Assembly (NCBI RefSeq): GCF_003334305.1
Contig: NZ_QOWS01000069.1
DNA from: Escherichia coli
GTDB taxonomy: Bacteria; Pseudomonadota; Gammaproteobacteria; Enterobacterales; Enterobacteriaceae
DNA: 840 nucleotides
Strand: one strand, 5' to 3'
The number at the start of each line of letters is the position of its first letter. Positions within the stretch are counted from its first letter, which is position 1. This document shows, in pieces, positions 1 to 840 of this stretch. The position numbers were made by a program, and so were the translations under genes. The notes beneath the pieces were generated by a model that did not search any database, was not told where the DNA came from, and saw only the letters and a program-made list of their open reading frames with translations.

Positions 1-651
1 GATTACGATTTCCTGTGCCGGATGGCGGCGGAGGAAGGCATCTTCTTTTATGAGGAGCACGCGCAAAAAAGTACCGACCAGAGCCTGGTCCTGTGCGACA
101 CCGTGCGTTATCTGCCGGAGTCCTTTGAGATCCCCTGGAATCCGAACACCCGTACCGAGGTGAGCACCCTCTGCATCAGCCAGTTCCGCTACAGCGCACA
201 AATCCGCCCTTCTTCCGTGGTGACCAAGGACTACACCTTTAAACGACCCGGCTGGCCAGGGCGTTTTGATCAGGAAGGCCAGTACCAGGATTACCAGCGC
301 ACGCAGTATGAAGTGTATGACTACCCCGGACGTTTCAAGGGTGCCCACGGGCAGAACTTTGCCCGCTGGCAGATGGACGGCTGGCGAAACAACGCAGAAG
401 TGGCGCGCGGAACAAGCCGTTCGCCGGAGATATGGCCGGGACGGCGAATTGTGCTGACGGGGCATCCGCAGGCGAACCTGAACCGGGAATGGCAGGTGGT
501 GGCAAGTGAACTGCACGGCGAACAGCCACAGGCGGTGCCAGGACGGCAGGGAGCGGGGACGGCGCTGGAGAACCATTTTGCGGTGATCCCGGCAGACAGA
601 ACATGGCGACCACAGCCGTTGCTGAAACCGCTGGTCGACGGCCCGCAGAGC
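1..651 (+). other. C-terminal portion of the gp27-like hub domain of VgrG (phage late control D / Phage_GPD-like region), with linker
   Basis: Frame 1 translation of this segment contains DYDFLCRMAAEEGIFFYEEH, YTFKRPGWPGRFDQEGQYQDYQRTQYEVYDYPGRFKG and NREWQVVASELHGEQPQ. I recognise these as matching the conserved N-terminal two-thirds of enterobacterial VgrG. The domain boundary is placed by eye, not by profile alignment. Confidence 0.6.
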
Positions 652-840
652 GCTGTCGTGACAGGACCGGCAGGCGAGGAAATCTTCTGCGACGAACATG
701 GTCGCGTGCGGGTGAAGTTCAACTGGGACCGTTATAACCCGTCAAACCAGGACAGTTCGTGCTGGATCCGTGTGGCACAGGCGTGGGCAGGCACCGGTTT
801 TGGCCACCTGGCGATACCGCGTGTGGGTCAGGAGGTGATT
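1..840 (+). CDS. vgrG: Type VI secretion system spike protein VgrG (TssI), internal fragment; partial at both 5' and 3' ends
   Basis: Seen in sequence: frame 1 is open for all 280 codons with no stop, and it continues past both window edges, which is why it is missing from the ORF track. Translation begins DYDFLCRMAAEEGIFFYEEHAQKSTDQSLVLCDTVRYLPESFEIPWNPNTRTEV and ends VVTGPAGEEIFCDEHGRVRVKFNWDRYNPSNQDSSCWIRVAQAWAGTGFGHLAIPRVGQEVI. Established knowledge, recalled from memory and not searched: the DYDFL.R.A.EEGI motif is typical of the phage late-control-D/gp27-like part of VgrG, and G.V.V.F.WDR ... SCWIRVAQ ... G...PR.GQEV is the conserved gp5-like OB-fold signature. Codon usage and GC-rich third positions fit an enterobacterial coding region. 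Confidence 0.88.
652..840 (+). other. Start of the gp5-like OB-fold domain of VgrG (Phage_base_V-like), continuing past the 3' window edge
   Basis: Frame 1 translation AVVTGPAGEEIFCDEHGRVRVKFNWDRYNPSNQDSSCWIRVAQAWAGTGFGHLAIPRVGQEVI. The GRV.V.F.WDR and SCWIRVAQ..AG..FG....PR.GQEV pattern is the hallmark of the gp5 N-terminal OB-fold in VgrG and phage baseplate spike proteins. The boundary is approximate. Confidence 0.65.

Follow-up and report, generated by a model that had tools for sequence, protein, structure and literature searches.

Our analysis indicates that the window, by which we mean the whole 840-nt stretch of Escherichia coli DNA analysed here (60.7% G+C), is almost certainly the middle of a vgrG (tssI) gene read in frame +1, and that the other long open frames it contains are statistical shadows of this gene rather than genes. 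The coding features of frame +1 are the following.

1..840, + strand: internal coding segment of vgrG (tssI), frame +1 (residues ~153-432 of 702).
1..525, + strand: C-terminal part of the gp27-like hub domain (Phage_GPD, PF05954), residues 1-175 of the translation, model positions 127-303 of 305, E=7e-39.
694..840, + strand: first part of the gp5-like OB-fold (Phage_base_V, PF04717), residues 232-280, model positions 13-57 of 75, E=2.5e-7.

Family profiles, RefSeq annotation and solved structures all show that frame 1 is the well-known gene vgrG. In NCBIfam, the fragment in the window matches TIGR03361 (type VI secretion system tip protein TssI/VgrG) with 328.1 bits (E=8.7e-98; curated cut-off 186.35) over profile positions 145-426 of 513, and it also matches TIGR01646 (238.9 bits, cut-off 121.8, E=1.1e-70). 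Among proteins of known structure, residues 2-280 of the window align with residues 152-432 of VgrG1 of Pseudomonas aeruginosa (4mtk, E=2.7e-49). Other solved VgrG chains (4uhv, 7q5p, 9mlp and 8qja) are matched by sequence as well, the whole set with 4mtk spanning E=3e-49 to 5e-34, and the alignments to 4mtk, 4uhv and 7q5p (E about 1e-49) run end to end with the window. The translation carries the hub domain and then the OB-fold in one chain (Phage_GPD at 1-175, Phage_base_V at 232-280). The C-terminal gp5-like beta-helical trimerisation (needle) region lies beyond the window and is seen in a full-length gene 99.8% identical to it, whose product has Phage_GPD, Phage_base_V and Gp5_trimer_C (residues 467-576, E=5.6e-26) and scores 627.9 bits on TIGR03361. 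A scan of both strands against Rfam at E<=1 returned no matches.

The original prediction, made from the letters of the window, had placed the real gene in frame 1 and described this frame as free of stops. Both statements hold: there are no stops in the 280 codons of the window, 20,000 base shuffles gave no sequence without a stop in frame +1 (mean of 9.4 stops), and the choice of frame is borne out by TIGR03361, the Pfam and PDB matches, the RefSeq annotation and the excess of substitutions at third codon positions described below. It had also held that frame 1 contains no start, which is contradicted by two in-frame ATG codons (at 22 and 373), 17 GTG and one TTG. Hence, it was right that start-to-stop ORF calling overlooks the gene, but a missing start is not the reason. 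Frame 1 continues past both ends of the window. With no stop to close it on either side, it is left off the list of ORFs, since the ORF tool passes over any ORF that is cut by the limits of its source. One antisense frame is also open over a long distance and also unlisted, and therefore an open frame does not by itself identify a gene. It is homology and the pattern of substitutions, rather than the openness of the frame, that identify this one.

This pattern was obtained by aligning the window with ten other vgrG copies, from 99.8% to 66% identical to it, which we designate by locus numbers where they must be told apart. In copies that are 95-97% identical, the numbers of substitutions at the first, second and third positions of the codons of frame 1 were 5/1/21, 7/2/30, 7/1/36 and 6/2/37 (the last in L009), and in a 67% identical paralogue they were 76/65/136. 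Frame 1 is open in all intact copies, and the amino-acid identity is 96-98% at a nucleotide identity of 95-98%. The concentration of substitutions at third codon positions marks frame 1 as the frame under selection. The differences between vgrG copies L003 to L009 and the window also come in blocks, with 11 substitutions in 85-168 (four copies), nine in 337-420 (four copies) and 18 in 505-588 (two copies), and the blocks are combined differently from strain to strain. The mosaic is suggestive of exchange between vgrG alleles or paralogues (two to five places per genome) through recombination or gene conversion.

The ORFs that were listed for the window lie in other frames. The default cut-off of 60 aa gave three ORFs, and a cut-off of at least 20 aa gave 11. 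We consider the three together with the unlisted antisense frame.

266..457, + strand: listed ORF of 63 aa with a TTG start, frame +2; chance ORF.
321..722, - strand: listed ORF of 133 aa with a TTG start, in the antisense frame whose third positions are those of frame 1; chance ORF.
335..613, - strand: listed ORF of 92 aa with a GTG start, in the third antisense frame; chance ORF.
1..741, - strand: antisense shadow in frame -1, absent from the list; 247 open codons, ATG at 699..697; non-coding.

The coordinates and frames given for the three listed ORFs in the original prediction were correct, the two on the minus strand being in different antisense frames. So was the skewed composition attributed to them: Arg, Pro, Ala, Gly, Ser and Cys make up 0.49 (266..457), 0.62 (321..722) and 0.69 (335..613) of their residues, against 0.39 in frame 1. 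The absence of recognisable motifs was likewise confirmed, with no match at a meaningful level for the 63-aa, 133-aa or 92-aa product in Pfam, NCBIfam, PHROGs or PADLOC. The 63-aa product gave weak matches in PHROGs (E=0.05 and 0.23) and to RicinB_lectin_2 in Pfam (E=0.034), which are at chance level and were rejected. The exact products of the four alternative-frame ORFs are absent from a collection of 15 billion proteins. The predicted outcome of the homology searches, no significant hits, held at the level of families, the homologues of the 133-aa product being six singleton calls antisense to vgrG.

One might argue that an ORF in an alternative frame is a real overlapping, possibly antisense, gene within vgrG, the best candidates being 321..722 on the minus strand and the ATG-started ORF of frame -1, which reaches 353 codons in a full-length gene. 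We consider this extremely unlikely. The ORF at 266..457 meets a stop at codon 50 in L003, L005, L007 and L009 (four of the seven intact copies that are 95-98% identical to the window), and a stop at codon 8 in the two copies of about 67% identity (L010 and L011). Its changes across copies are 0-2 synonymous and 4-9 nonsynonymous (for example, two against nine). For the ORF at 335..613 the counts are 0-1 synonymous and 2-21 nonsynonymous changes (8-21 when L004 is set aside). Its product drops to 77% amino-acid identity in comparisons that leave VgrG at 97-98%, and in L010 and L011 two stops interrupt it.

The case of the 133-aa ORF is more intricate. It is open in eight of the nine copies at 95% identity or more, its product is 98.5% identical in several of them, and its 21 synonymous and seven nonsynonymous changes give it a conserved appearance. 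Yet, this appearance arises because the third positions of its codons fall on the third positions of frame-1 codons, so that changes silent in vgrG are silent there too; the counts are thus uninformative for this ORF. The case against it is made by start loss, stops in diverged copies, a test of chance length and a search for homologues. The TTG start is replaced by TTA in L006, L008 and L009, there is an internal stop in L008, and there are three stops in L010 and L011. We ran the homologue search on this ORF, the one to which the substitution test is blind, and recovered only six proteins among 5.8 billion clusters, each from a single contig. When placed with tblastn on the loci studied, all six fell on the antisense strand of vgrG, and five of them switch between minus-strand frames along their length, as expected of gene calls on indel-ridden assemblies. 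The sixth, P0003, joins the N-terminus of an IS-family transposase (PF01385) to the ORF's final 44 residues, which implies the insertion of an IS into a vgrG copy in some genome. These homologues do not constitute a conserved family.

Frame -1, which is in register with vgrG and open over 247 codons, is a fourth shadow frame that the original prediction missed; the three ORFs listed there do exist. As with frame 1, its extension beyond the window keeps it out of the ORF list. Its single stop in the window is a TGA at 744..742, the complement of the sense codon TCA at 742-744. Its openness has a simple cause: a stop in this frame requires a sense TTA, CTA or TCA, and frame 1 has exactly one of these (the TCA). 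In the full vgrG gene of the closest match (L001), frame -1 forms a 353-aa ATG-started ORF at 8638..9699, and a second ATG-started antisense ORF, of 257 aa, lies further downstream at 9757..10530; both are longer than any listed ORF. The product of frame -1 has no match in NCBIfam or Pfam. Its changes are 0-2 synonymous against 9-31 nonsynonymous (1 against 31 in L009), and it is interrupted by stops in L006, L008, L010 and L011. The substitutions and the stops in other copies show frame -1 to be non-coding.

The lengths of these ORFs can be compared with a chance expectation in which the amino-acid sequence of VgrG is fixed and synonymous codons are redrawn 3,000 times from the gene's own usage. 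The probability of reaching the observed length was 0.46 for 266..457 (at least 63 aa), 0.08 for 321..722, 0.12 for 335..613 and 0.16 for a run of at least 247 codons in frame -1. The 133-aa ORF stands at the 92nd percentile for its own frame, which favours an overlapping gene to some extent, but an ORF of at least 133 aa in any alternative frame arose in 25% of the resamples (P=0.25). The lengths of the alternative-frame ORFs are within what chance yields from the VgrG protein and its codon usage. Stop codons are A+T-rich, and G+C-rich coding DNA generally yields long shadow ORFs, a textbook artefact.

Overall, the hypothesis of an overlapping gene is largely refuted. Across the copies, 266..457, 321..722 and frame -1 lost starts or gained stops, and 335..613 acquired its two stops in the 67% copies; no purifying selection in the alternative frame was apparent for 266..457, 335..613 or frame -1. 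The conservation of 321..722 follows from the third positions shared with vgrG, and this ORF is without a family match, its exact product is not among the 15 billion proteins, and its six homologues are singleton calls that hop between frames or are fused to an IS. The lost starts, the stops, the chance lengths and the absent families thus support the original view of the three listed ORFs as out-of-frame or antisense by-products: they are products of chance in the wrong frames, and not genes.

Composition and codon usage discriminate less well between frames. The original prediction had proposed to compare GC3 periodicity and codon adaptation between frame 1 and the others. GC3 is insufficient for this purpose, since frame -2, which contains 321..722, has a value of 0.710 where frame +1 has 0.707; frame -1 has the value of frame +1 as its GC1. 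For codon usage, we derived log-odds from six native neighbouring genes (2,048 codons from the 832-7724 region of L001). The comparison pointed in the predicted direction in that the total was positive for frame +1 alone (+12.8 bits; -50 to -192 in the other frames), but it was weak: the excess of frame +1 is +0.05 bits per codon, and within 335-613 frame 1 scores lower than the antisense ORF (-0.20 vs -0.11). The ORF at 266..457 scores -0.39 bits per codon, against +0.04 for frame 1. The test has little power because vgrG, at 61% G+C, is atypical of E. coli codons, and codon usage alone would not settle the frame.

Sequences matching the window are common in the species. We found DNA matches in 3,644 of 5,426 complete E. 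coli genomes, at a median of two and up to five places per genome, and among the matches listed every one is annotated as VgrG. No 100% identical record was found for the window. The best match, L001 (strain DETEC-E601), is 99.8% identical over the whole window, which corresponds to 9001-9840 within a CDS at 8545-10653 annotated as vgrG (WP_271292074.1), encoding an intact VgrG of 702 aa, and covers codons 153-432 approximately. The two sequences differ by two nucleotides, one of which changes an amino acid. The order of genes in L001 is yncG-yncH, vgrG, then, 66 nt later, a gene for an 'RHS element core protein', followed by 'dsORF-e4'. An RHS core gene also follows vgrG in L002, and the 67% identical vgrG paralogue has a PAAR gene before it and an M35 peptidase gene after it. 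The L001 region at 10720-18840 contains the RHS core gene, which is frameshifted, then dsORF-e4, remnants of IS1 and ISAs1, and a second RHS core gene, and looks like a decaying, rearranged Rhs locus. When vgrG (L001 8545-10653) is set against the adjacent native genes (832-7724), the window, at 61% G+C, has a codon fit that is barely positive, which agrees with a vgrG-rhs unit whose composition is foreign to E. coli.

Some of the close relatives of the window are not intact, and differ from it in a homopolymer.

65..70, + strand: A6 run inside vgrG; its deletion to A5 in several E. coli assemblies gives a frameshifted pseudogene.

One A is missing at 65-70 in L002, L012, L013 and L014, where vgrG is annotated as 'frameshifted', and six of the matches listed have a length of 839 nt. 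The four A5 assemblies come from the USA, China, Nigeria and Brazil. The A5 state could be an inherited pseudogene allele, the outcome of homopolymer slippage or a sequencing error. It raises the question of whether the copy in the window is itself in decay, as a vgrG pseudogene or a fragment left as an orphan Rhs-associated remnant, rather than a working gene. Several of the closest matches (99.4%) are indeed annotated as frameshifted through this deletion, the RHS core gene downstream is frameshifted in the best match, and both the start and the end of the gene lie outside the window. However, the window has the A6 run intact, over its 840 nt neither a stop nor an indel sets it apart from the intact copies, and the 99.8% identical copy is annotated as an intact 702-aa protein. 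We thus regard a pseudogene as improbable here and an intact vgrG as the better reading. That one and the same frameshift, from A6 to A5, turns up in strains from four countries also gave rise to the idea of a slipped-strand on/off switch for Rhs-linked vgrG. We judge it very improbable that either the A6 run at 65-70 is such a switch or the minus-strand ORF at 321..722 is an overlapping gene that is translated. For the recurrence of A5, an inherited pseudogene allele or an error of homopolymer sequencing is a simpler explanation than a switch, and for the 133-aa ORF chance is a simpler one than translation.

What the gene product does can be proposed from its family. The segment of VgrG encoded in the window comprises the end of the gp27-like hub, then a linker, then the beginning of the OB-fold that resembles gp5. 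By analogy with other members of the family, a trimer of VgrG would form the spike capping the Hcp tube of the type VI secretion system and would be fired by contraction of the sheath. In published work, the spike that sits on the Hcp tube is described as VgrG, and Rhs toxins as being mounted on it (PMC4924876, PMC8636562, PMC8765631). In the nearest loci rhs is directly downstream, and therefore we infer that this VgrG may act as an Rhs carrier, taking the effector, the toxin of the downstream gene, out of the cell on the spike. Trimer formation, secretion and the loading of Rhs are all expected from what is known of the family.

The vgrG-rhs unit is a well-studied part of the machinery of bacterial competition. 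The presence of vgrG beside rhs is already known and annotated in thousands of E. coli genomes, and there is nothing new in it. The significance of our results is for quality control only: when ORFs are called from start to stop on a short window, a gene that fills the window from end to end goes unseen and its shadow ORFs are listed instead. The same caution applies to the in-register antisense frame of vgrG, which is nearly as open as the real frame.

Finally, the window can be placed among known systems. Its shadow ORFs have the same skewed composition, lack of homologues and lack of selection as those of G+C-rich coding DNA in general, and we found no difference between them. The Rhs-linked VgrG of E. 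coli (TIGR03361 'VI_Rhs_Vgr' / TIGR01646 'vgr_GE', WP_271292074.1) has the same domain order and 99.8% DNA identity, and nothing differs in kind. VgrG1 of P. aeruginosa (4mtk, 4uhv, 6h3l) is a distant orthologue, with a near-identical stretch running from VKFHWDR to SCWIRV(S/A)QAWAG to IPR(I/V)GQEVI; its linker has diverged around window residues 170-200, and it is not Rhs-linked as far as the data of this analysis show. The gp27-gp5 tail spike of phage T4 is built from the same families in the same order (Phage_GPD, Phage_base_V, Gp5_trimer_C). Two features set VgrG apart from it: no lysozyme domain was detected in the full-length VgrG relative, and the gp27-like and gp5-like parts are fused in one chain.
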